A stretch of DNA of 64,000 nucleotides from the IMG/VR virus record IMGVR_UViG_3300022867_000010; one strand, given 5' to 3'. The stretch is from an uncultured virus (IMG/VR IMGVR_UViG_3300022867_000010) (Duplodnaviria > Heunggongvirae > Uroviricota > Caudoviricetes). Below the pieces are notes generated by a model that did no database searches, was not told the origin of the DNA, and was given only the letters and a program-made list of their open reading frames with translations. Below are positions 1,823-63,590 of the stretch, piece after piece. The position numbers and the translations under genes were made by a program. Position 1 is the first letter of the stretch. Each line of letters starts with the position of its first letter.

Positions 1823-2419
1823 CTACCTATTGAATGTGAATAATTCCAACCCTTCTTTTTTAGCTTTTTGTGCTTTCTTCTCAGCTTTTATCTTTTTCTT
1901 GGTAAACCCATCGTCTTCCTTTACTCTTTGAATTCGTGATCTTAAATCATCGACAAAGGTATGATCAATGCTACTTAAATGGTTTAGTTCTTCATCATTT
2001 AGATACATAAAATCATCGTAACCAGATCTTTCTATGAATTTAAATTTAATATCTTGTTGCTTCTTCTCCTTTGCTATTCGACGCAAAAATGCAAAATAGC
2101 TAATTTGAGTAAAGTACGAAAAGGCATTTGGATTACCCGTTCGAGTTGCTGCTTCAATGTTATAGTTAACTATGGCTCGTAAGTTGTTTTCTACTGCATC
2201 CATTACCATCTCATCTCGATATGTATATCTAATGAAGTTTGATTTGTAGGACAACCCTTCTGCTATTTTTAGAAAGCATCTGGCAATATATTCTGGAACA
2301 ACTGGCACCACGGTTTCATTTTCTTTGGCCGTGTTTGCAATCTTAACATAATCACAAACTGCTTGTGAGAAGTTTTTATTGTTCACGTAATGCGGTTTAT
2401 CTTTAGGTTTAATCTTCAT
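1823..2419 (-). CDS. 55: Late-transcription sigma factor (gp55)
   Basis: HYVNNK, IAEGLS..NF..YTYRDEMVMDA, NAFSYFTQI..AFLRRI.KEKKQ motifs. Confidence 0.95.
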   Translation of the reverse strand: MKIKPKDKPHYVNNKNFSQAVCDYVKIANTAKENETVVPVVPEYIARCFLKIAEGLSYKSNFIRYTYRDEMVMDAVENNLRAIVNYNIEAATRTGNPNAFSYFTQISYFAFLRRIAKEKKQQDIKFKFIERSGYDDFMYLNDEELNHLSSIDHTFVDDLRSRIQRVKEDDGFTKKKIKAEKKAQKAKKEGLELFTFNR

Positions 2420-2440: not shown

Positions 2441-2469
2441 ATTATACACCATCTTGGCGTATTTGTCAA
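2441..2469 (-). promoter_or_regulatory. sigma70-type promoter for gp55
   Basis: TTGACA-17 nt-TATAAT on the minus strand, followed by an AAGGA SD and the gp55 ATG. Confidence 0.85.
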
Positions 2470-2501: not shown

Positions 2502-2570
2502 GGTTGACAAACTTGTGTAGTTGTGTTATAATAACTAAGTCGTGCCGGGGCAGGTTGGTGTACACTAAAT
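2502..2570 (+). promoter_or_regulatory. Orphan sigma70 promoter plus conserved motif, copy 1
   Basis: TTGACA(2504)-17-TATAAT(2532), then AACTAAGTCGTGCCGGGGCAGGTTGGT; second copy near 53086-53154 on the minus strand. Confidence 0.8.
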
Positions 2571-2572
2571 AT

Positions 2573-2929
2573 CTAATGTAAGGTCAACCCTTCGGGATTG
2601 CCCTCCTGCGGTTCTTCTTCCTGCAAGGCATCCTTTAATTCCTGTCCTACGATTTTACTTAATGCATCCACGTAAAAGTTACACATTTCTGCATTAGGCT
2701 CTGCTATAACAATTCCAGTCTTCATAATTGTCACGGTGTTGTTCTCTGCAAAGTTCATGAAGTCCTTCATATAATAAGTATACTTATCTTCTTCTGAATT
2801 GCTTTTAACTACTTCAAGACTGTCTTGCATTTCAATATAGACATCATTTTGGAATGTAACATTACCTACAATAAACTCTCCAGTGGCAAGTTTTATATAC
2901 AATAATTGTACTTCATTTATAGCTCTCAT
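2573..2929 (-). CDS. Conserved hypothetical protein, possibly Sm-like fold
   Basis: IKLATGEFIVG start; sits between uvsW and gp55 as in marine T4-like phages. Confidence 0.6.
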   Translation of the reverse strand: MRAINEVQLLYIKLATGEFIVGNVTFQNDVYIEMQDSLEVVKSNSEEDKYTYYMKDFMNFAENNTVTIMKTGIVIAEPNAEMCNFYVDALSKIVGQELKDALQEEEPQEGNPEGLTLH

Positions 2930-3840
2930 TTTAAAGGTACCTCATAAACTTTATAATCAAATTCTTGTTGACTGTATATCTTAATTCTTTCTGCTGCATG
3001 ATTTAATGCATAATTTTTATGTGATTTCCAATGCAAGTCGTCTGCAATGTCATACACGGTTGTAATTCTTCCATCATCAGATTTTCTCAAACCACGTCCT
3101 ATCGATTGTAAAATCTTAATTTGGCTCTTCGACGGAGATGCAAAGACAATATTGTGTAGGTTCCTAATATTTATACCTGTAGAAAATACACCTAAACTAG
3201 CAACAATAATCGCATTCTTTTGTGTTTCAGTTAGTTTCCGTACATACTCTCTGGTATCGGCATCAGTCTTACCAGACACATAAAAGATCTTTCTTCTTTC
3301 GTGAGCATGCTTTTCTATAAGAGCATGTAGTGGTATACCATGCTTTTCCACAAACTGAAACAAGATTAAAGTATTACCATCTAGATCAAGAGCAAGATTT
3401 TTGATAAAGTTGTTACGTTTTTCGTGCCGAACAATAAAATCAATCTCGTCAGGATACTTCATCTTCTTAACTAACTTACATTCTTCATCTCTAAACTTCA
3501 ACAATAGAATGTTAATATTCAGGCCAGCGAGAGTTCCATCATCAATAAGTTTCTTGGTTGTTGTCACGTAATGTGCTTTACCAAAGTGACCTTCAAGCTG
3601 CAATCTATGGCTCTTTGCAGAGCTGTCTTTGATAGTACCGGTAGTGCCAAATCTATATGCTGCTTCTGATAAGTTGGACATAATAGAGGTCAGAGACTTT
3701 GCTGTAGCGAGGTGCGCTTCATCCACTACGACACAACCATACCTTTCAAACCAACTCTTATTGAGCTTGTATATAGACTGCCATGTTGATATTACAATTC
3801 TGGGTGTTGTAGTTTTTCTAGTTATTTTTTTTATTTTCAT
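2926..3840 (-). CDS. uvsW: UvsW helicase, C-terminal part (split gene)
   Basis: IVISTWQS, DEAH, GTTGT, STGINI, QSIGRGLR SF2 motifs; preceded by a 13-aa non-helicase leader MKIKKITRKTTTP. Confidence 0.92.
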   Translation of the reverse strand: MKIKKITRKTTTPRIVISTWQSIYKLNKSWFERYGCVVVDEAHLATAKSLTSIMSNLSEAAYRFGTTGTIKDSSAKSHRLQLEGHFGKAHYVTTTKKLIDDGTLAGLNINILLLKFRDEECKLVKKMKYPDEIDFIVRHEKRNNFIKNLALDLDGNTLILFQFVEKHGIPLHALIEKHAHERRKIFYVSGKTDADTREYVRKLTETQKNAIIVASLGVFSTGINIRNLHNIVFASPSKSQIKILQSIGRGLRKSDDGRITTVYDIADDLHWKSHKNYALNHAAERIKIYSQQEFDYKVYEVPLK

Positions 3841-4666
3841 GATATGATCTTATATGTTTAGGGATGCAATGTGCCGCCATAGCTCTATCACAATATTCAC
3901 ATTTGATTTTGGGTTTTGATCGACCCTTCGCTTTAGTTGTAGTACCCTTATTGTGACCTTGTTGGATCCAATCATCTCCGGGCTTTTCGTTTGCTTGAGT
4001 ACGTTCATAGGTTACAGTATTATACCAACACTTTCTACCTTTCATATCAGGCATAGAATCAAGTTTTTTCTGAACAAAAACAGGATTTTGCATAGGATTG
4101 TTAGTATTCCACACATTCGTTTTATTTTTAGTACGAGTTTCTATAGACTTCTTATGAGTTTCCTCATCATTGAAGGGACTGTGCTCTTTCATAAACTCGC
4201 GTTGATTTTCTCTTTTCCCCGAATTCCATTCAGCAACCATCATCTCAGATTGAGTGATGGCGTCCCTTCGCCCATCTTTGTAACTAGCTTTCATATCTTC
4301 GGACATCATGGCTGCAAGGTCTCTTTTTAGACTTTCGTATACCCTATTGGTTACACGACTTTCTGTGTTATTTGATTTCATAGACATTGCTGTATATGCC
4401 CTTAACATAGAATATCGACCTTTGTCCGTTATAAATTTAGGCAACAGCACGTGTGCTAAATAATGTTCCCTTGCTGTTAATCTTACCATATTATTTTTTG
4501 CATTACAACCACCAAGAGATTTAGGTAATATGTGATGGTTTTCGGTGTAATTGTCTCTATCTACAGGATTAGCTAACCGGTTAGCTATTATATTACAATA
4601 CCAATTATAATATTTGTTTATGTTCTTGCCCTTGTAGCCATTTATCGTCAATTTCGTGAGATTCAT
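3818..4666 (-). mobile_element. MobE-like HNH homing endonuclease inserted within uvsW
   Basis: YTENHHILPKSLGG..N.V.LTAREHYLAHVLL HNH motif; C-terminal CxxC..H zinc finger; overlaps both uvsW halves. Confidence 0.9.
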
Positions 4667-5417
4667 TTAGTTCGTCTGCTCTTATTTTACATTTCTTATT
4701 GTTATTTATAATATCTATAAACGCATTGCCTAAAAATCTATACAATTTACCATCAATCGTCTCTATTTCTATGTATACTTTTGTGGGTGGTACCTTATCT
4801 TGCCCCGAGTATATAATATGGCAAAGATCATCAGACATAAACCCGTCGTCAAATTCTGAATAATCCGCGAAGTCACTATTCATTTGTTTTACAAGTGAGG
4901 TTGTTGGCACTACAATTAGTATATCTTTTTCGTTGTTGTCAAGATAATAACGAAGTATAGAATATATAATAAAAGATTTGCCAGACGCAGTTGGAGATAT
5001 AACCAAAGAGTTTCTATTCTCTAGGCAATGCTCTACCGCGGCTAATTGATAGTCGTGATGCTTTATAGGTGCGCCGCGAGAAGTAAAAGTGCAGTCATTG
5101 ATCCATTCCATATCATAAGAGTGTAGAGTCCCAGGCATGCCATAATAGTTATTGTGCTCTACTTCGATCTTGTAATCTCGAGTTTTGGCAAATTCTTCAA
5201 CATAAGTATAGAGCCCAATAGGCAGCTGTCTATCTCTCGAGTTAAAAATGCGAATGTAGCCGTCCCATTGCTTGTTCTTATATGAGGGCATGAACTGATA
5301 TCCCTCAGGTTGAAAAGCAAAGAAGTCAGTTAACTCATTGAGTATAGAAGGCTCGGCATCAACATGCAAAAACGCTTGGTTCTTCTTTTTTAAGGTTATT
5401 GTATTCCATTCTTTCAT
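4605..5417 (-). CDS. uvsW: UvsW helicase, N-terminal part (split gene)
   Basis: GYQFMPSYK..WDG.IR, DYQ, SPTASGKS (Walker A), IVVPTTSLV.QM..DF; about 62-aa non-helicase tail after GQDK. Start taken at MKEW, just after the uvsY stop. Confidence 0.92.
   Translation of the reverse strand: MKEWNTITLKKKNQAFLHVDAEPSILNELTDFFAFQPEGYQFMPSYKNKQWDGYIRIFNSRDRQLPIGLYTYVEEFAKTRDYKIEVEHNNYYGMPGTLHSYDMEWINDCTFTSRGAPIKHHDYQLAAVEHCLENRNSLVISPTASGKSFIIYSILRYYLDNNEKDILIVVPTTSLVKQMNSDFADYSEFDDGFMSDDLCHIIYSGQDKVPPTKVYIEIETIDGKLYRFLGNAFIDIINNNKKCKIRADELNESHEIDDKWLQGQEHKQIL
4703..4710 (-). promoter_or_regulatory. T4 late promoter for the HNH gene, inside the uvsW-N tail
   Basis: TATAAATA about 37 nt upstream of the HNH ATG. 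Confidence 0.6.
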
Positions 5418-5418
5418 A

Positions 5419-5865
5419 TCACATCCCACTTGTAAATTGACGCCATTTTATAGCATTGCCGATAGTTTGGTGTCTCCATTTTATCGACTCCATTATCTCT
5501 TTCAGTACATCTACCACGTTTTTGGTGTATTCGATTCTTGCTAGTGCTGATTGTATGTGTTCATCCGCATCATAAAAATAATGCATCTCACCTTTCATGA
5601 TCTTTAAACCTTGGAGTGCATCGTAATCCCAGCCCAGCTTATCTATTGCATCTTTGGACATTTTGCCATTATACCATAGATATTTATTTTTTAGGAGTAC
5701 TTGTAGTTCTGCTTCGCGCTTTTTGAGAGTAAGTCTATACATCGACCAGATCTCTATATATTTTGAATGAAGCTTAGCACCTTGGATAGATGCTGCGTCT
5801 AGATTCATCTCGTCGATGGGAGAATCGACTTTCCACATAGCATAGATTGCTTCTAATGTTATCAT
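5419..5865 (-). CDS. uvsY: Recombination mediator UvsY
   Basis: W..DS.ID, LHSKY, I.NAI.WR.F..G; adjacent to uvsW. Confidence 0.9.
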   Translation of the reverse strand: MITLEAIYAMWKVDSPIDEMNLDAASIQGAKLHSKYIEIWSMYRLTLKKREAELQVLLKNKYLWYNGKMSKDAIDKLGWDYDALQGLKIMKGEMHYFYDADEHIQSALARIEYTKNVVDVLKEIMESIKWRHQTIGNAIKWRQFTSGM

Positions 5866-5899
5866 TATAAAGAGCCTTCATATAATTAGTTTACATATG

Positions 5900-5907
5900 T
5901 ATTTATA
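5900..5907 (-). promoter_or_regulatory. T4 late promoter (uvsY/uvsW)
   Basis: TATAAATA upstream of uvsY. Confidence 0.75.
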
Positions 5908-21135: not shown

Positions 21136-21501
21136 TTATAATAGATCAAGCAATTCTTGCTCGGTTGTTGTGGAATCTATATCAATTTGCATTTTGTCGT
21201 CATTGTCTCGAATAACTTTTCTATCGGATTCTGCTTGTGTTGCGTCTTGGCTCGGTATCTGCTTCATTATGATTGCATCATGTGGTGCAAAGTCCTTCTC
21301 TCGTTTTGCTCTGCGTAACTCATGTGCAACCTCCTTCGCTAAAGGTAAATCAGTTACCACCGCGTCACCTACAATTCTCCACGCACCACGAAAGACCTTA
21401 TCAGGGACTGACACAACTTCAAGCCATGTTGCACCTTCAGGTATTGAGGACTGCTTTGAGCAAATCGCAACGGTGTTATCTTCTTGTTGATATGCGTACA
21501 T
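21136..21501 (-). CDS. Putative tail-fibre assembly or accessory protein
   Basis: VPDKVFRGAW and AHELRRAKR..F.P.D patterns typical of small proteins that follow phage fibres. Confidence 0.5.
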   Translation of the reverse strand: MYAYQQEDNTVAICSKQSSIPEGATWLEVVSVPDKVFRGAWRIVGDAVVTDLPLAKEVAHELRRAKREKDFAPHDAIIMKQIPSQDATQAESDRKVIRDNDDKMQIDIDSTTTEQELLDLL

Positions 21502-21986
21502 TAATGCTTCCTCAAATAGTTAATAGCCTTCTCAAGAAGCCCTATATCATCTTTAAAATGGCCTAAAGCAAAGTTACAGCTTATACATAACAAGCCTCTA
21601 ACCTCACCTGTTATGTGGTCATGGTCTACGTTTAAGCTCTTAGTGCAGTCATCTTCATGTACATTACATATTAAACATGAGTAATCCTGACTTACCAGCA
21701 TACTCGTATAGTCATCGTAGGTTATGCCATAGTTTTTCTTTAACCTAGTATTGGCTACTTGCCTTGGGTTAGCTTTATACCATGCCTTAGCCCTGCTGCT
21801 GACCTTATCTTTTCTACTGTCGTCATAGGCGATATACTGATAGTTGCGACAAGGAATGCATATATTCCTATATCCATGCTTTGATCCCTTATCAATAACA
21901 AAGCCTTTAAGATCTTCCGCAGTATGAGCCGACTTATCACAAGAAGGGCAGGTTCTTAGTGCTTCCATCTTATGATTTACCTCCAA
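21501..21986 (-). mobile_element. Endonuclease VII-family (His-Me finger) homing endonuclease
   Basis: YGIT..DY..ML..Q...C.IC, LNVDHDH.TG.VRGLLC..CN.ALGHFKDD; N-terminal CxxC pairs. Confidence 0.85.
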
Positions 21987-24312
21987 ATACAGAAAGGCAC
22001 ACTAGATCATAGTCGTTTCCGGCTTGCCCTTGGTTATAGATTTTTACCTTTACAGAATTTTTATCGTGTGATAATGCTCTGTTATCATACCCAGTCGCGG
22101 CCAGAGTATATGCATATCCAAAACTGTCCATAGGTGTGTCAAAGACAATCTTATAATTGCCAGTCCCTAAATCAACCACATCAGACACATTATAACTATC
22201 ACGAATCAAAGGTGGGTTTTGAGTCCCATCGAAATTAACCCAAGCAGTCGCAACACCAATGTTCTTAATCTCACCATGAACTGTCAAGTCACCATGCGCT
22301 TCAACATCATTAAACCGTTGCTTGGCAACAGGCATATTGGCGAGTGTAGAGTTGATTACATCACCATCAGAATCCGTCCTGAACTCTGCTAGATACGTGC
22401 GGTTTATTGCTGTGCCACTAGAGTTGTACATTTTACCAGCGTCGATTAGGTAGTAATCTGACGGGAGGATTGTGTTAAACTCTAGTTCTGTTATAGCTGT
22501 ATAAGTTGAGTCCCCCGAGTTATTTGTAATGTTAATACGATGATATAAATAAGCTGTAGTGTTGCTGCCAGTTAAGTTGATGTCTCCCCACAAGTACACT
22601 CCGTTGCCTAAGTAGTCATTAGCAGTATAAGTTGAATCAATAGCCGTCCAGCTGAAACCATTATGAGAACCTTCAATAGTAAACCTTTTAGGTACTCTAT
22701 CTACATCACTACCTTCGCGTAGTCTCCATGACTTAATAATGCGAGGCTCTACTCCCTTATACTGTAACCACGATAGAGTTGATGTAGTTGCATACCATTC
22801 AACCCCTGTTACGCCTACAATATCGTTAGAGTCTTTGTTAAAGGCTTTATAAGCCTCGTAACCTGCGCCTCTTTCACCACTAGCACTAACAACACCTGTC
22901 GAACTTTCATAATCAAAGTGTTTAGCAGTAGTCCTTAGACTTGCATCCAGTGGACTAACCTCACCCCACTTGTCTGCATCATTTCGAGTGATACCTTCTA
23001 GTGGTCTGTTTTCAGTTACACCATACGAACCACCTAAGTCTTTATAGATGTAGTAGTGCTTATTCTCATGTCCTGCACCTAATGCATACGTTACACCAGA
23101 TCCTACGTTTTCTTTACTATCTACTTGACCATTCGCATCAAAACCTTGAGCAAATGATATGAGTGTGTTCTGAGCAATTGATAAAGTGTCAGCAGTTGTT
23201 GGGTACGTGTAGTCTGAGTTTGTGTACGTGTTTGTAGATGCACCACCAGTAGATGACTCTGCATAGGCCATGAATAGGTATTCGTTGTTTAACGAATTTA
23301 CTGTGCCATGAGCATCTTTAAGTACAAACCCATTATCGGTAAACTCTTTAATCGCTATATATGTCTCGGCATTTGCTGAATTAGCGTATAAATCTGACGT
23401 ATCGCCTCTTGTACTATCCCAAATGTACCAATCAGAGGTGCTAGTCATATTCTTAATTATCACCCACGCAGGTTTAAAACCACAGTCCACATAGTTACCA
23501 GCAGCACCAATGCCGATATACTTGCCTATTTTGGAGACGTTGGGGACTGATGCGAAGTGGTAGGATATGTAATTCTCTGTGGCAGCATTAATCCAAGAGT
23601 GGGAACCTATTTGTAAAGTTTCTTTTGAAAATAAAGCAGTTAAGTTAGTGGTGGTATTAAGTGCATCTGTGCCATTTAAACGTAAATATTGATTTGGAAA
23701 CAACGGAGAATGCACAACCCAATGTTCTGAACCGTCACCTTCTCTATCTTTAGAAATACTCCACTCAGACTTAACACCCAAATGATACGGTATCTCATGC
23801 CCATCTTCACCATCACCCTCGTAACCAACAATAGAGAAACCTAAGTCTGGGTTGTAGTGACAAGTGTATGCCTTGTTACGATTAGTTGTGCCAGTGACTT
23901 TCTTAGTTGTCTGCCATGACCATGAGGCGAACTTGTCGGCATTGGCGTTTGCTGAACCAGACGTTCCTACAGTAAAGCCATCATTATCAAAAGATTCTAG
24001 CGTGGTTGTTGCGTTAGTTATTTCACTATTAGTTGTATCACTAACTAAATACTGTAGATTTCCTCTAACTGTATCCATTATTCTGTGACTATTAGTACCA
24101 TCGCGATTCTTAATCCAAACAAGCCCACCAAAGTCACCAGTGTCCATATCAAGGCCAGTGTTGATCGCATGACTACTTGACCCATCACCAGTGTATATGG
24201 CAGCACTAAAACCTGATTGCGTGGACTCACCTTGAGTTACCGCTGTTTGATTTAGAGTTGTGCTTCTAACAACAGATTCGGTACTATTTGCTAACTTTCT
24301 TGCTTTACTCAT
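21970..24312 (-). CDS. Tail fibre / receptor-binding protein (780 aa)
   Basis: YTGDG..GLVWIKNRD and GFSIVGY.G.G repeats, a discoidin-like domain (YKAF..W..WLQY..P..FTIEGS), C-terminal AWVNFDG..IRDSYNVS.V.D.GTG.Y. Confidence 0.75.
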   Translation of the reverse strand: MSKARKLANSTESVVRSTTLNQTAVTQGESTQSGFSAAIYTGDGSSSHAINTGLDMDTGDFGGLVWIKNRDGTNSHRIMDTVRGNLQYLVSDTTNSEITNATTTLESFDNDGFTVGTSGSANANADKFASWSWQTTKKVTGTTNRNKAYTCHYNPDLGFSIVGYEGDGEDGHEIPYHLGVKSEWSISKDREGDGSEHWVVHSPLFPNQYLRLNGTDALNTTTNLTALFSKETLQIGSHSWINAATENYISYHFASVPNVSKIGKYIGIGAAGNYVDCGFKPAWVIIKNMTSTSDWYIWDSTRGDTSDLYANSANAETYIAIKEFTDNGFVLKDAHGTVNSLNNEYLFMAYAESSTGGASTNTYTNSDYTYPTTADTLSIAQNTLISFAQGFDANGQVDSKENVGSGVTYALGAGHENKHYYIYKDLGGSYGVTENRPLEGITRNDADKWGEVSPLDASLRTTAKHFDYESSTGVVSASGERGAGYEAYKAFNKDSNDIVGVTGVEWYATTSTLSWLQYKGVEPRIIKSWRLREGSDVDRVPKRFTIEGSHNGFSWTAIDSTYTANDYLGNGVYLWGDINLTGSNTTAYLYHRINITNNSGDSTYTAITELEFNTILPSDYYLIDAGKMYNSSGTAINRTYLAEFRTDSDGDVINSTLANMPVAKQRFNDVEAHGDLTVHGEIKNIGVATAWVNFDGTQNPPLIRDSYNVSDVVDLGTGNYKIVFDTPMDSFGYAYTLAATGYDNRALSHDKNSVKVKIYNQGQAGNDYDLVCLSVFGGKS

Positions 24313-52650: not shown

Positions 52651-53091
52651 ATGGCTTATAGCGGAAAGTTTGTACCTATTAATAAAAATAAATATAAGGG
52701 TGACTGGAACAAGATAGTATACCGATCAACTTGGGAGAATGCTGCGTTCAAATGGTTGGATATGAATCCAGACATTAAGTTTTGGAATTCAGAAGAAGTG
52801 GTAATTCCTTATACATGTGCTACCGACCGGCGCAGGCATAGATATTTTGTCGATCTTTGGTTCGAGACCACGAAAGGAAAGAAGTATCTAATAGAAATTA
52901 AACCAAACAAAGAAACTAAACCACCCAAAAAAGGGGTAAGACGTACTAAAAAATATATACGAGAATCAATGACGTATGCAAAGAATATGTCTAAATGGAA
53001 TGCTGCCTCTGAATTTGCGTTAGACAATGACTGTGTATTCTTTATATGGACAGAGATCGAACTTAAGTCTCTTGGCATTAAAATTATGTAG
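52651..53091 (+). CDS. 4: Head completion nuclease (gp4)
   Basis: YSGKF.P.N..KYKGD...I.YRS.WE, W.SEE..IPY, HRYFVD, IEIKP, N..KW.AA. Confidence 0.95.
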   Translation: MAYSGKFVPINKNKYKGDWNKIVYRSTWENAAFKWLDMNPDIKFWNSEEVVIPYTCATDRRRHRYFVDLWFETTKGKKYLIEIKPNKETKPPKKGVRRTKKYIRESMTYAKNMSKWNAASEFALDNDCVFFIWTEIELKSLGIKIM

Positions 53092-53154
53092 CACATACCA
53101 ACCTGCCTCGGCAGAACTTAATTATTATAACACAATAACTAACATTTGTCAACC
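53086..53154 (-). promoter_or_regulatory. Orphan sigma70 promoter plus conserved motif, copy 2
   Basis: TTGACA-17-TATAAT (53152-53124), then AATTAAGTTCTGCCGAGGCAGGTTGGT; matches 2502-2570. Confidence 0.8.
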
Positions 53155-53172
53155 ATTATCTGAAGCAAATTT

Positions 53173-54000
53173 CTATAGTTTTAATGTCCAACCAGATCTG
53201 GTTTTATAATTAGGCCTGTTTAAAATTCTGCTAATCTGCCATTCCGATAGATTTAAATCTGCTACCATCTTCGCTCTAGTGCCAGAAAATGAGGCACCCG
53301 ATATATTGATTAATGTGTATATCTCTTCTGCTCTGCGCGCTATATACGCGATTCTGGCCATTGACATCTTTTGTCTGGTTTCCTCTGATGCTTTTTTACC
53401 TTTCGATGCTATTGACATATTGCGCTTGGCTTCCTCAGAATGTCTTTTACCAGTTCTCGTTATCGACATTTTCCGTTTAGTTTCGTCTGACATATTTAAC
53501 GCAGCAGTCCTCATACGAGCTTTTGTTTCGTCTGACTTGGCGTGGTGTAAACGCGCTTTTGTTTCGTCGGACATATTTAACTTAGCAATTCTCATACGAG
53601 CTTTTGTTTCGTCTGATCGCTTTCTACCTGTCCTTGATAATGACAGCTTTCTTTTATGTTCCACGGACTGAGGTGTGCCCAAGGTATTAAACCCCGATGC
53701 AGTTGCTTTAGATCTATTATAAAATAAAGGATTTCTTGATACATTATGATCATTATGAAGATCTATTTCATTCTGGGAAGCTTCGTCTCTCGTATCAAAT
53801 ATTGAAATGATGATCTTTTCGAAAGATAACATACCTTGTATTGATATGGACTCATCAAGATATTTTGAAGAACCCATATATGGATCATCTTCAGGTAAAC
53901 ATTTACAAGATCTGACACCGATGTAATATCGACATCTATCTGTGGGATGCAAATTAGTTATTAGATAGGTGTAGTGATAGGTATAAATAGAATTATGCAT
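53173..54000 (-). mobile_element. Seg-like GIY-YIG homing endonuclease with NUMOD3-type repeats, between gp4 and gp2
   Basis: YTYLITN...YYIGVRS...YMGSS; repeated SDETKARMR / HSEEAK; late promoter at 54069-54076 and a 12-bp leader hairpin. Confidence 0.88.
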
Positions 54001-54121
54001 TTCAATATCTCAGTTATTGTGATGATAGAATCGGAAGGTTCTTCAACCACCTTCCGATTCGTTTCTATTATTTATAACAAACCCATTTTGTGGACGATTA
54101 CAATGGCAATAAAATAACAAT

Positions 54122-54709
54122 ATGAGTTCATTATTCGACAAACTACAATCCGCGGCCTTTAGAAAAGGAATCACAGCGCGCACCAAAGAATCCAATGAGT
54201 GGTTTCGTGATCGTATCAAAGATATGGGCACGATTAATCGAAATCAATTGCTTAAGGATGAAAGATTGCAGAAACGACAAAGATTTGGTGTAGGCAATCT
54301 TTATATGTTTTTCTATAATCCCAAACATCGTAAAACACTTCCTTATTATGATGCATTTCCTCTAGCAATTATGGTAGGGCCCGCACCAGACGGCTTCTAC
54401 GGGCTTAATCTGCATTATCTACCACCTACGTTGCGTGCCAAATTGTTTGATGAGTTATTGACTATAGCCTCAAATAAGAGATTCGACGAAACGACTAAGT
54501 TTAAGTTGACGTATGAATTATTGGCAGGAGTACAAAGGTTCAAATTATTCAAACCTTGTTTAAAGCATTATCTTACAAGTCAAGTACAGAAACCTGTGGC
54601 GTTGGTCGAGGCCAGTGAATGGGAATTAAGTATTTTCCTACCGACAGAAAGTTTCAAGAAAGCCAAGAATAGTAGAGTTTGGTCCGATTCGAGGAAAGCA
54701 GCAAAATGA
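54122..54709 (+). CDS. 2: DNA end protector protein (gp2)
   Basis: YMFFY.PKH..TLPYYD.FPL, GLNLHYLP..LRA, KPC.KHYL, W....FLPT..F.K. Confidence 0.95.
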   Translation: MSSLFDKLQSAAFRKGITARTKESNEWFRDRIKDMGTINRNQLLKDERLQKRQRFGVGNLYMFFYNPKHRKTLPYYDAFPLAIMVGPAPDGFYGLNLHYLPPTLRAKLFDELLTIASNKRFDETTKFKLTYELLAGVQRFKLFKPCLKHYLTSQVQKPVALVEASEWELSIFLPTESFKKAKNSRVWSDSRKAAK

Positions 54710-62173: not shown

Positions 62174-62290
62174 ATTTTTAGTCTCTTCAATTAATTTATA
62201 CATATATTATACCATGGTTGGGGTATAATGTCAACAACTAATTTCAGTTTAGTTATAATTAGTTGTTATATCGTTAGAATTAGTTGTTAT
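62171..62290 (-). repeat. Early promoter/leader cassette, copy 1
   Basis: GTTGTTGACATTA..TATAAT (62234-62206), then TATAAATTAATTGAAGAGACTAAA..ATG. Confidence 0.85.
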
Positions 62291-62601: not shown

Positions 62602-62692
62602 AATTTAGTCTCTTCAATTAATTTATAGATGTATTATATCATAGACTTATTATAATGTCAACAACTTTGTTATAATTAGTTGTTATATCGAT
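62599..62692 (-). repeat. Early promoter/leader cassette, copy 2
   Basis: TTGACA-17-TATAAT (62661-62633), then ACATCTATAAATTAATTGAAGAGACTAAATTATG. Confidence 0.85.
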
Positions 62693-63490: not shown

Positions 63491-63590
63491 AATTTAGTCT
63501 CTTCAATTAATTTATAGATGTATTATACCACAACTATGATGTAATGTCAACAACATATTTAGAACTTGTAGTTATATTGTTATAATTTTT
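63488..63590 (-). repeat. Early promoter/leader cassette, copy 3
   Basis: TTGACA-17-TATAAT (63550-63522), then the same ACATCTATAAATTAATTGAAGAGACTAAATTATG. Confidence 0.85.

Follow-up and report, generated by a model that had tools for sequence, protein, structure and literature searches.

Why should a bacteriophage place a perfect host-type promoter at the end of a block of late genes, pointing backwards into that block and with no gene of its own to drive? The question is raised by two copies of a short element in the stretch of DNA analysed here (the 'window', 64,000 nucleotides from an uncultured tailed virus), the gene content of which is T4-like: gp47, gp55, a 118-residue ORF, uvsW, uvsY, a structural block, gp4, gp2, gp32 and gp59 (Table 1). 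The answer that we favour, at a probability of roughly 40%, is that the element is a cis-acting early promoter, the untranslated, G-rich RNA of which would form an R-loop and act as a replication primer, as at oriE and oriF of phage T4.

The original prediction held that the stretches 2502-2570 (+) and 53086-53154 (-) agree at 54 of 69 positions, that both are perfect sigma70 promoters, and that each is aimed at the 3' end of an opposed gene. All three claims are borne out: a recount again gives 54/69, both promoters match TTGACA-17-TATAAT at 12 of 12 positions with a TG preceding the -10 box, and the two point at the stop codons of the 118-residue ORF (copy 1) and of gp4 (copy 2). Over the 27 bases 3' of the -10 box, 23 are common to the two copies (binomial probability 3e-10 at genome composition, before correction for the search), and the genome's other 36 TTGACA promoters match the copies' leader at no more than 10 of those 27 positions. 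The 20-base core has no further occurrence in the 64-kb window at up to six mismatches. Transcription of copy 1 is predicted to start at 2538-2539, just ahead of a dyad (TGCC-GG-GGCA, 2543-2552), and its leader ends in a GTAC/TATAC-type box, 7 bases from the stop codon of the 118-residue ORF.

Table 1. Coordinates of the element copies and of neighbouring features
Feature	Record	Position	Strand	Remarks
Copy 1 promoter	window	2504..2532	+	-35 TTGACA 2504-2509; 17-bp spacer; TG-extended -10 TATAAT 2527-2532
Copy 1 conserved leader	window	2533..2566	+	G-rich tract 2544-2560
Copy 2 promoter	window	53124..53152	-	-35 TTGACA 53152-53147; 17-bp spacer; TG-extended -10 TATAAT 53129-53124
Copy 2 conserved G-rich leader	window	53091..53123	-	abuts gp4 stop codon
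gp55-gp47 sigma70 promoter	window	2441..2469	-	12/12; back-to-back with copy 1
gp55, late sigma factor	window	1823..2419	-	phrog_234, E 5e-49
118-residue ORF	window	2573..2929	-	final gene of late uvsY-uvsW unit; head-on to copy 1; phrog_527, phrog_471
uvsW helicase	window	2926..5429	-	two pieces, 4605-5429 and 2926-3840
Homing endonuclease gene	window	3818-4666		between uvsW pieces
uvsY	window	5419..5907	-	late promoter TATAAATA at 5907 upstream
gp4, head completion	window	52651-53091	+	head-on to copy 2; late promoter 52617
GIY-YIG/NUMOD3 homing endonuclease gene	window	53173..54000	-	directly behind copy 2
Element copy	G001	28.5 kb	-	at gp4 (= copy 2)
Element copy	G001	52.8 kb	+	between 310-residue ORF and HD-domain gene
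Element copy	G001	76.0 kb	+	between 174-residue ORF and nrdB
Element copy	G001	112.5 kb	+	= copy 1

Two further claims of that prediction have to be qualified. No sense ORF was said to follow either promoter, and copy 2 is in fact followed, on its own strand, by an ORF of 95 codons (52809-53096); this frame contains stops in six of seven relatives and has no Pfam match, and on those comparative grounds it is an antisense shadow of gp4. The dyad described earlier is real but, with a loop of 2 bases, does not fold in that form and is missing outside the lineage (within which it is intact in nine of ten distinct copies, and broken without compensatory change in the tenth).

The genes that surround copy 1 belong to a late unit in which late promoters precede both uvsY and uvsW, and cyanophages carry a counterpart of the 118-residue ORF in the same slot. 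At the break in uvsW the two ORFs have about 54 and about 17 extra residues, and no intein or intron was detected there; the gene is unsplit in the relative L060, and a uvsW-A/uvsW-B split is annotated in phages T6 and PST. The endonuclease gene behind copy 2 is not part of the element, because it is missing at this spot in L051, which keeps the element. A tie between the element and homing endonucleases was likewise rejected, since both L051 and L060 keep the element with no endonuclease beside it.

A longer record (G001), which contains all sampled words of the window and consists of a phage of about 135 kb plus a 63.5-kb insert, carries four copies of the element, of which the window shows two. 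On the 135-kb circle they are separated by gaps of 24, 23, 37 and 51 kb. Outside the insert the record has 41 strict sigma70 matches, and the four copies are the only ones among them that are gene-less, G-rich and aimed at the 3' end of a late gene: they have 10-12 Gs in positions +1 to +24, as against 7 or fewer in the other 37, all of which lie on the coding strand of early genes. A check for the motif behind these ordinary, gene-driving promoters found it at 0 of 37.

Several other features of G001 were recorded in passing. The insert (131,961-195,436; L299-L302) has 34% G+C, is missing from the window, is bordered by a repeat approximately 630 bases long (window 21353-21987) and encodes a family A DNA polymerase, together with a weak match to a single-subunit RNA polymerase; it is probably a second phage, either co-assembled or recombined in. 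The nrdA gene (71,874-74,878; L296) consists of two ORFs with intein-like ends and an endonuclease-like ORF between the halves, and a P-loop protein (52,861-54,494; L295) is likewise encoded by two ORFs with intein-like ends. A 12-bp stem-loop near 76.07 kb (L291:1576-1617; z -3.0, with a compensatory change in L044) follows the 174-residue gene, 75-115 bases into the transcript of the copy there, and is probably a terminator or processing site. Finally, a second repeated cassette, made up of a perfect sigma70 promoter and a common A+T-rich leader that ends in a start codon, occurs at window positions 62206-62234, 62633-62661 and 63522-63550 and at many sites in G001, where it drives many small early genes and resembles the 'PeSL' cassettes discussed below.

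Every one of the four element copies faces a unit with late promoters, and three of the four stand back-to-back with an early promoter. Such an arrangement would also be expected if the element worked by early antisense transcription or by collision, with backward transcription removing or blocking premature read-through messages, above all that of uvsW; the G-rich, C-poor start would then merely keep Rho from loading, so that the RNA becomes long enough. In these phages one strand carries almost all of the genes, so that read-through is a genuine danger; in T4, UvsW has to be late (PMC3016281); and an antisense RNA, CfrI of cyanophage S-PM2, is known in a marine T4-like phage, although it is about 225 nt long, is tied to psbA and its endonuclease, and is connected neither with gp55/uvsW nor with a repeated promoter in the cited part of that review (PMC2984593). 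However, the genes that face the four copies are unrelated to each other, the faced gene is not conserved across relatives, several late-to-early junctions of G001 (near 48.4, 59.8 and 61.9 kb) have no element, and a conserved 25-base leader of fixed length exceeds what antisense action needs. Delay of late genes by antisense transcription or collision is a real possibility, though probably not the answer.

Exact-motif scans found the element in 18 viral and 12 metagenome loci, which represent ten distinct copies and five kinds of site; each of the ten runs counter to a gene and either abuts its 3' end or lies within about 130 bases of it. A second set of contigs has four copies, three of which match sites of this genome, the fourth lying at another gene. 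In one motif scan 17 of 41 matches were the element, and the other 24 were chance matches with no promoter. A nucleotide search of cultured phages returned matches to the promoter boxes only, and a search of bacterial (host) genomes returned no match to the element. The downstream 30 nt are kept in relatives (in the ten distinct copies of the close lineage and, in a looser G-rich form, clade-wide), and the motif never stands behind a gene-driving promoter in its own genome. Taken together, these two observations show that backward promoter and G-rich leader are a real, conserved cis-element under selection.

The looser form was followed in the best 80 of 587 gp55 relatives, of which four were dropped (they had no upstream DNA), leaving 76 loci; at each, the antisense promoter was picked by its -35 and -10 boxes alone. 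A strong backward promoter (at least 11/12) is present in 64 of the 76 loci from these best 80 relatives, and 61 of the 64, as against 0 of 67 sense gp55 promoters, have at least 8 Gs in +1 to +24. The mean number of Gs is 10.0 in backward and 4.0 in sense promoters (47 and 40 distinct sequences of the same set; the sequences are related, so that a p value for the comparison is not independent). Most of the 12 weaker loci in this set show the same G tract by eye, and two relatives, L118 and L136, have no element within 2.3 kb of gp55. The family consensus runs from the -10 box through about four A/T bases, AGAGT, 4-9 variable bases and a G/A tract of 11-12 bases to TATAC, after which conservation ends sharply.

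A scan with the downstream pattern returned at least 120 loci. Among the 80 fetched, 75 lie beside gp55, four beside uvsW on cut contigs and one elsewhere, and a -35 box at 17 bp, which the pattern does not require, is present in 76. At the gp4 site such a promoter is found in 6 of 16 distinct stretches (two of the six being this phage) and is missing in 10; in one distant relative, three 33-bp A+T-rich direct repeats just downstream of the gp4-site element (L147:2931-3029) resemble the iterons or the unwinding element of T4 oriE. Eleven cultured phages were hand-picked for inspection: backward promoter and G-rich leader are present in 6/6 cyanophages (Syn19, S-RIM2, P-SSM7, S-SKS1, S-E7 and ACG-2014f) and also in C48C1, as one copy only; a weak form was recognised only by eye in Melnitz-3, and the element is missing from Mendera, Cr30 and phiM9.

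In most of the fetched loci, among the matches listed, 0-10 bases separate the G tract from the late gene's stop codon, and the tract is C-rich on the late message. The conserved feature might accordingly belong to the opposite strand, as a Rho-loading or terminator tract after the late-gene stop, with the promoter incidental. We consider this highly improbable: the -35 box at 17 bp is conserved alongside the tract, a late promoter at 76053 of G001 fires across the element, and in four relatives (L101, L104, L105 and L138) the scan detected neither a sigma70 nor a late promoter dedicated to the next gene. The element is also probably not a terminator of late transcription, which appears to cross it.

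What is held constant, instead, is the address. The element is kept at the end of the late unit although the faced gene differs between relatives, and its position survives the insertion of a gene between element and gp55 promoter (L100, L101, L104, L105 and L138); a cytidylyltransferase gene, for example, can separate it from that promoter, and the element stays at the late-unit end. With its position constant while the faced gene changes or a gene is inserted, the element acts as a site rather than as a message, and this pattern suits a site better than it suits a target-specific antisense RNA.

The motif keeps away from gene-driving promoters in this genome but not throughout the family. 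In cyanophages, their form of the leader also follows sense promoters that drive genes (S-RIM2 cpeT and a gene at about 48.3-48.4 kb, the S-SKS1 helicase gene, and further matches in Syn19, S-E7 and ACG-2014f). For that form of the motif, this is one of the outcomes that the original prediction had listed as refuting it. In L093, and probably in L091, the element drives a real counter-oriented gene of 299 residues with the G tract as its ribosome-binding site, so that the promoter is usable, but the G tract can also be a plain ribosome-binding site. This captured gene (L093:516-1415; L091:1425-2213) belongs to phrog_25854, a PHROG of unknown function, has no Pfam match and encodes what we take to resemble an amidinotransferase.

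Such cases invite the view that the element is an early-promoter cassette spread by recombination, with the leader as an operator, stabiliser or strong ribosome-binding site, and with the backward copies as empty slots or as binding sites for polymerase or a phage regulator, the RNA itself having no role. The leader occurs in both orientations in cyanophages, it pairs with the anti-Shine-Dalgarno sequence at -10.9 kcal/mol (versus -6.2 for real leaders), and the genome does contain a second promoter-leader cassette before early genes. The PeSL cassettes of RB49 and phi1 (Arbiol et al. 2010, PMC2839356) provide a precedent, as near-perfect sigma70 promoters that recur in the genome, each next to a conserved motif, and that were probably spread by recombination. 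According to the cited sections of that paper, however, PeSLs are sense-oriented and end in a Shine-Dalgarno sequence and start codon, carry a stable stem-loop, and number about 50 per genome, in hyperplastic regions; the element has no conserved sense gene and no conserved fold. At nearly every locus examined it stands without a gene, and it occupies one core-genome spot from cyanophages to heterotroph phages, which is unlike an empty slot.

Nor is there a start codon at a fixed distance. The ATG or GTG found downstream is the reverse of the terminal His codon of the opposed ORF (in most gp55-site relatives the last codon before the stop in the counterpart of the 118-residue ORF is a His codon; window 2573-2584), and the frames that it opens run from 1 to more than 28 codons. 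A recombination-spread cassette is therefore unlikely, and a small peptide was rejected as a candidate on the same grounds, the 95-codon ORF being not conserved.

An earlier suggestion that the copies form a small-RNA family finds no support in so far as it meant a structured RNA. Shuffled sequences fold as well as single copies do (z +1.1 to -0.9), the consensus fold of 41 aligned sequences has 0 pairs, a closing helix of 5'-AGU/ACU-3' shows 0 double changes and no covariation, and no conserved terminator was found. A structured small RNA and an anti-CRISPR solitary repeat (the element has what we take to be a likeness to a type I-F CRISPR repeat) were both rejected in the absence of a hairpin with covariation and of an Rfam match, no Rfam family, CRISPR repeats included, having been found at any copy. 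Neither a cUUCGg hairpin located 45-70 nt into copy 1 nor its counterpart in L060 is significant (z -0.6 and -1.3). The TATAC box was considered as a sigma70 pause element and rejected: among 47 sequences, ATAC is followed by T in 22, by C in 16 and by A in one, and eight have no box, which does not amount to a conserved -10-like hexamer. A 7-base word just 3' of the -10 box, common to the T4 oriF leader (L164) and window 2535-2541, is likely to be chance, since the wider family keeps only AGT.

These results bear equally on the proposal of a short trans-acting decoy RNA (25-35 nt), the purine-rich core of which would titrate ribosomes, a CsrA-type protein or a Cas6 protein. The strong promoter, the sharp end of conservation after the TATAC box, the Shine-Dalgarno-like core and the near-identity of the copies would all suit such an RNA. 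However, fold, covariation, terminator, Rfam family and bacterial matches are missing, and a strict orientation towards late 3' ends would be superfluous for an RNA acting in trans, so that a decoy seems improbable.

The R-loop origin, which was already put forward in the original prediction, is still the best single guess. T4 has at least five origins, at which promoter-made R-loops prime replication; its oriE relies on an early promoter, early synthesis begins mostly in regions that are transcribed late, and the origin R-loops are removed at late times by UvsW (PMC3016281). Here, the host sigma70 polymerase would fire the perfect promoter immediately after infection, giving an RNA with no conserved frame or fold, the first ~25 bases of which are G-rich and C-poor. 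This untranslated RNA would pair again with its template and form an R-loop; at three of the four copies the back-to-back promoter would assist by making the DNA negatively supercoiled. R-loops are favoured by clusters of Gs and by negative supercoiling (PMC6442632), and an RNA start that is untranslated and rich in G is of the sort that seeds them, again with help from negative supercoiling (PMC6442632, PMC11551753). Phage RNase H would trim the RNA, and gp43, gp45, gp32, gp59 and gp41 would, as judged from T4, start a fork head-on into the late gene block. Shut-off may come from the switch to gp55 transcription, from head-on late transcription and from late-made UvsW. Most relatives examined have one site, at the end of the structural-uvsY-uvsW unit, and this lineage appears to have multiplied it to four, spread round the genome.

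In favour of an origin are the four gene-less, G-rich promoters among 41, the single clade-wide spot, the four spaced copies, and the encoded replication and R-loop-removing proteins (gp32, gp59 and UvsW, with a T4-type RNase H in G001). Against it, the promoters are not followed by an A+T-rich unwinding element: +25 to +105 has 54% and 66% A+T at the two window copies (family mean 65%, window 62%), as compared with 71% in the first 80 bases of T4 oriF, the leader of which has a single G. The best 15-base hybrid energies of three copies rank 1-3 of 41 and that of copy 2 ranks sixth, but over +1 to +100 the copies are ordinary among the 41 promoters and the energy is modest overall. No iteron array lies near any of the four copies, and neither in C48C1 nor in the window does strand skew (total or at four-fold sites) switch at the site, a weak test, as T4-type replication is mostly recombination-driven. 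The cyanophage leader behind sense promoters, the driven gene of L093/L091, the missing element of L118 and L136 and the single copy of C48C1 also count against the origin.

Comparison with T4 gives a similarly mixed picture. Like oriF (ori(uvsY)) and oriG (ori(34)), the element is a promoter-defined site of about 100 bp, of which a genome has several (Kreuzer and Brister 2010, PMC3016281), and it would engage the same replication and R-loop-removing proteins, which this phage encodes; the likeness to oriF extends to adjoining uvsW and pointing at its 3' end. In contrast, those origins use MotA middle promoters and an A+T-rich unwinding element where the element has sigma70 TTGACA-17-TATAAT and no such tract; the oriF RNA is the G-poor uvsY message, whereas the element is gene-less with a G-rich leader; and T4 origins, in the cited sections, have no common searchable motif (PMC3016281), unlike the element copies, which share the leader. 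With oriE the element has in common, by sequence, an early host-type promoter lying antisense in the late gene 4/53/5 region, the neighbourhood of copy 2. However, oriE has evenly spaced 12-nt iterons and repEA/repEB, whereas the element has neither iterons nor a conserved small ORF, and oriE is antisense to gene 5, copy 2 being antisense to gp4 and sense to gp53/gp5. Since it fails on MotA promoter, A+T-rich element and iterons, the element is, on this comparison, not a member of the oriE/oriF class, though it would be like them if the R-loop forms.

Cyanomyoviruses have no MotA, according to the cited part of a review (PMC2984593), so that an origin promoter in them would be host-type or late. 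This allows a broader proposal, which we regard as doubtful: that replication throughout the marine T4-like group, cyanophages included, starts at the backward promoter beside gp55, a MotA-independent R-loop origin in which the G-rich leader replaces the A+T-rich element. In T4, late promoters respond to a primer-template junction only if it lies downstream of them, and most clamp loading comes from lagging-strand synthesis (PMC2988020). If a fork met a late operon head-on, its gp45 clamps would go onto the lagging strand in the polarity that activates late promoters, so that the origin would double as a late-gene enhancer, and this lineage would have one at the end of each of four late blocks.

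No description of a backward promoter at gp55 was found in the portions covered of the literature searched (including PMC9004378, PMC3037559 and PMC5082946); the Syn9 genome paper and a Syn9 transcription-start study could already contain this start site or origin. The cyanomyovirus review, in its cited part, gives only a predicted single origin, for Syn9 (PMC2984593). For the replication start of marine T4-like phages the element provides one candidate of 60 bases at a fixed address. If backward transcription instead times the late genes, it would show how phages with no middle mode of transcription keep those genes off early in infection. The element is present in cultured cyanophages, which makes the origin question directly testable.
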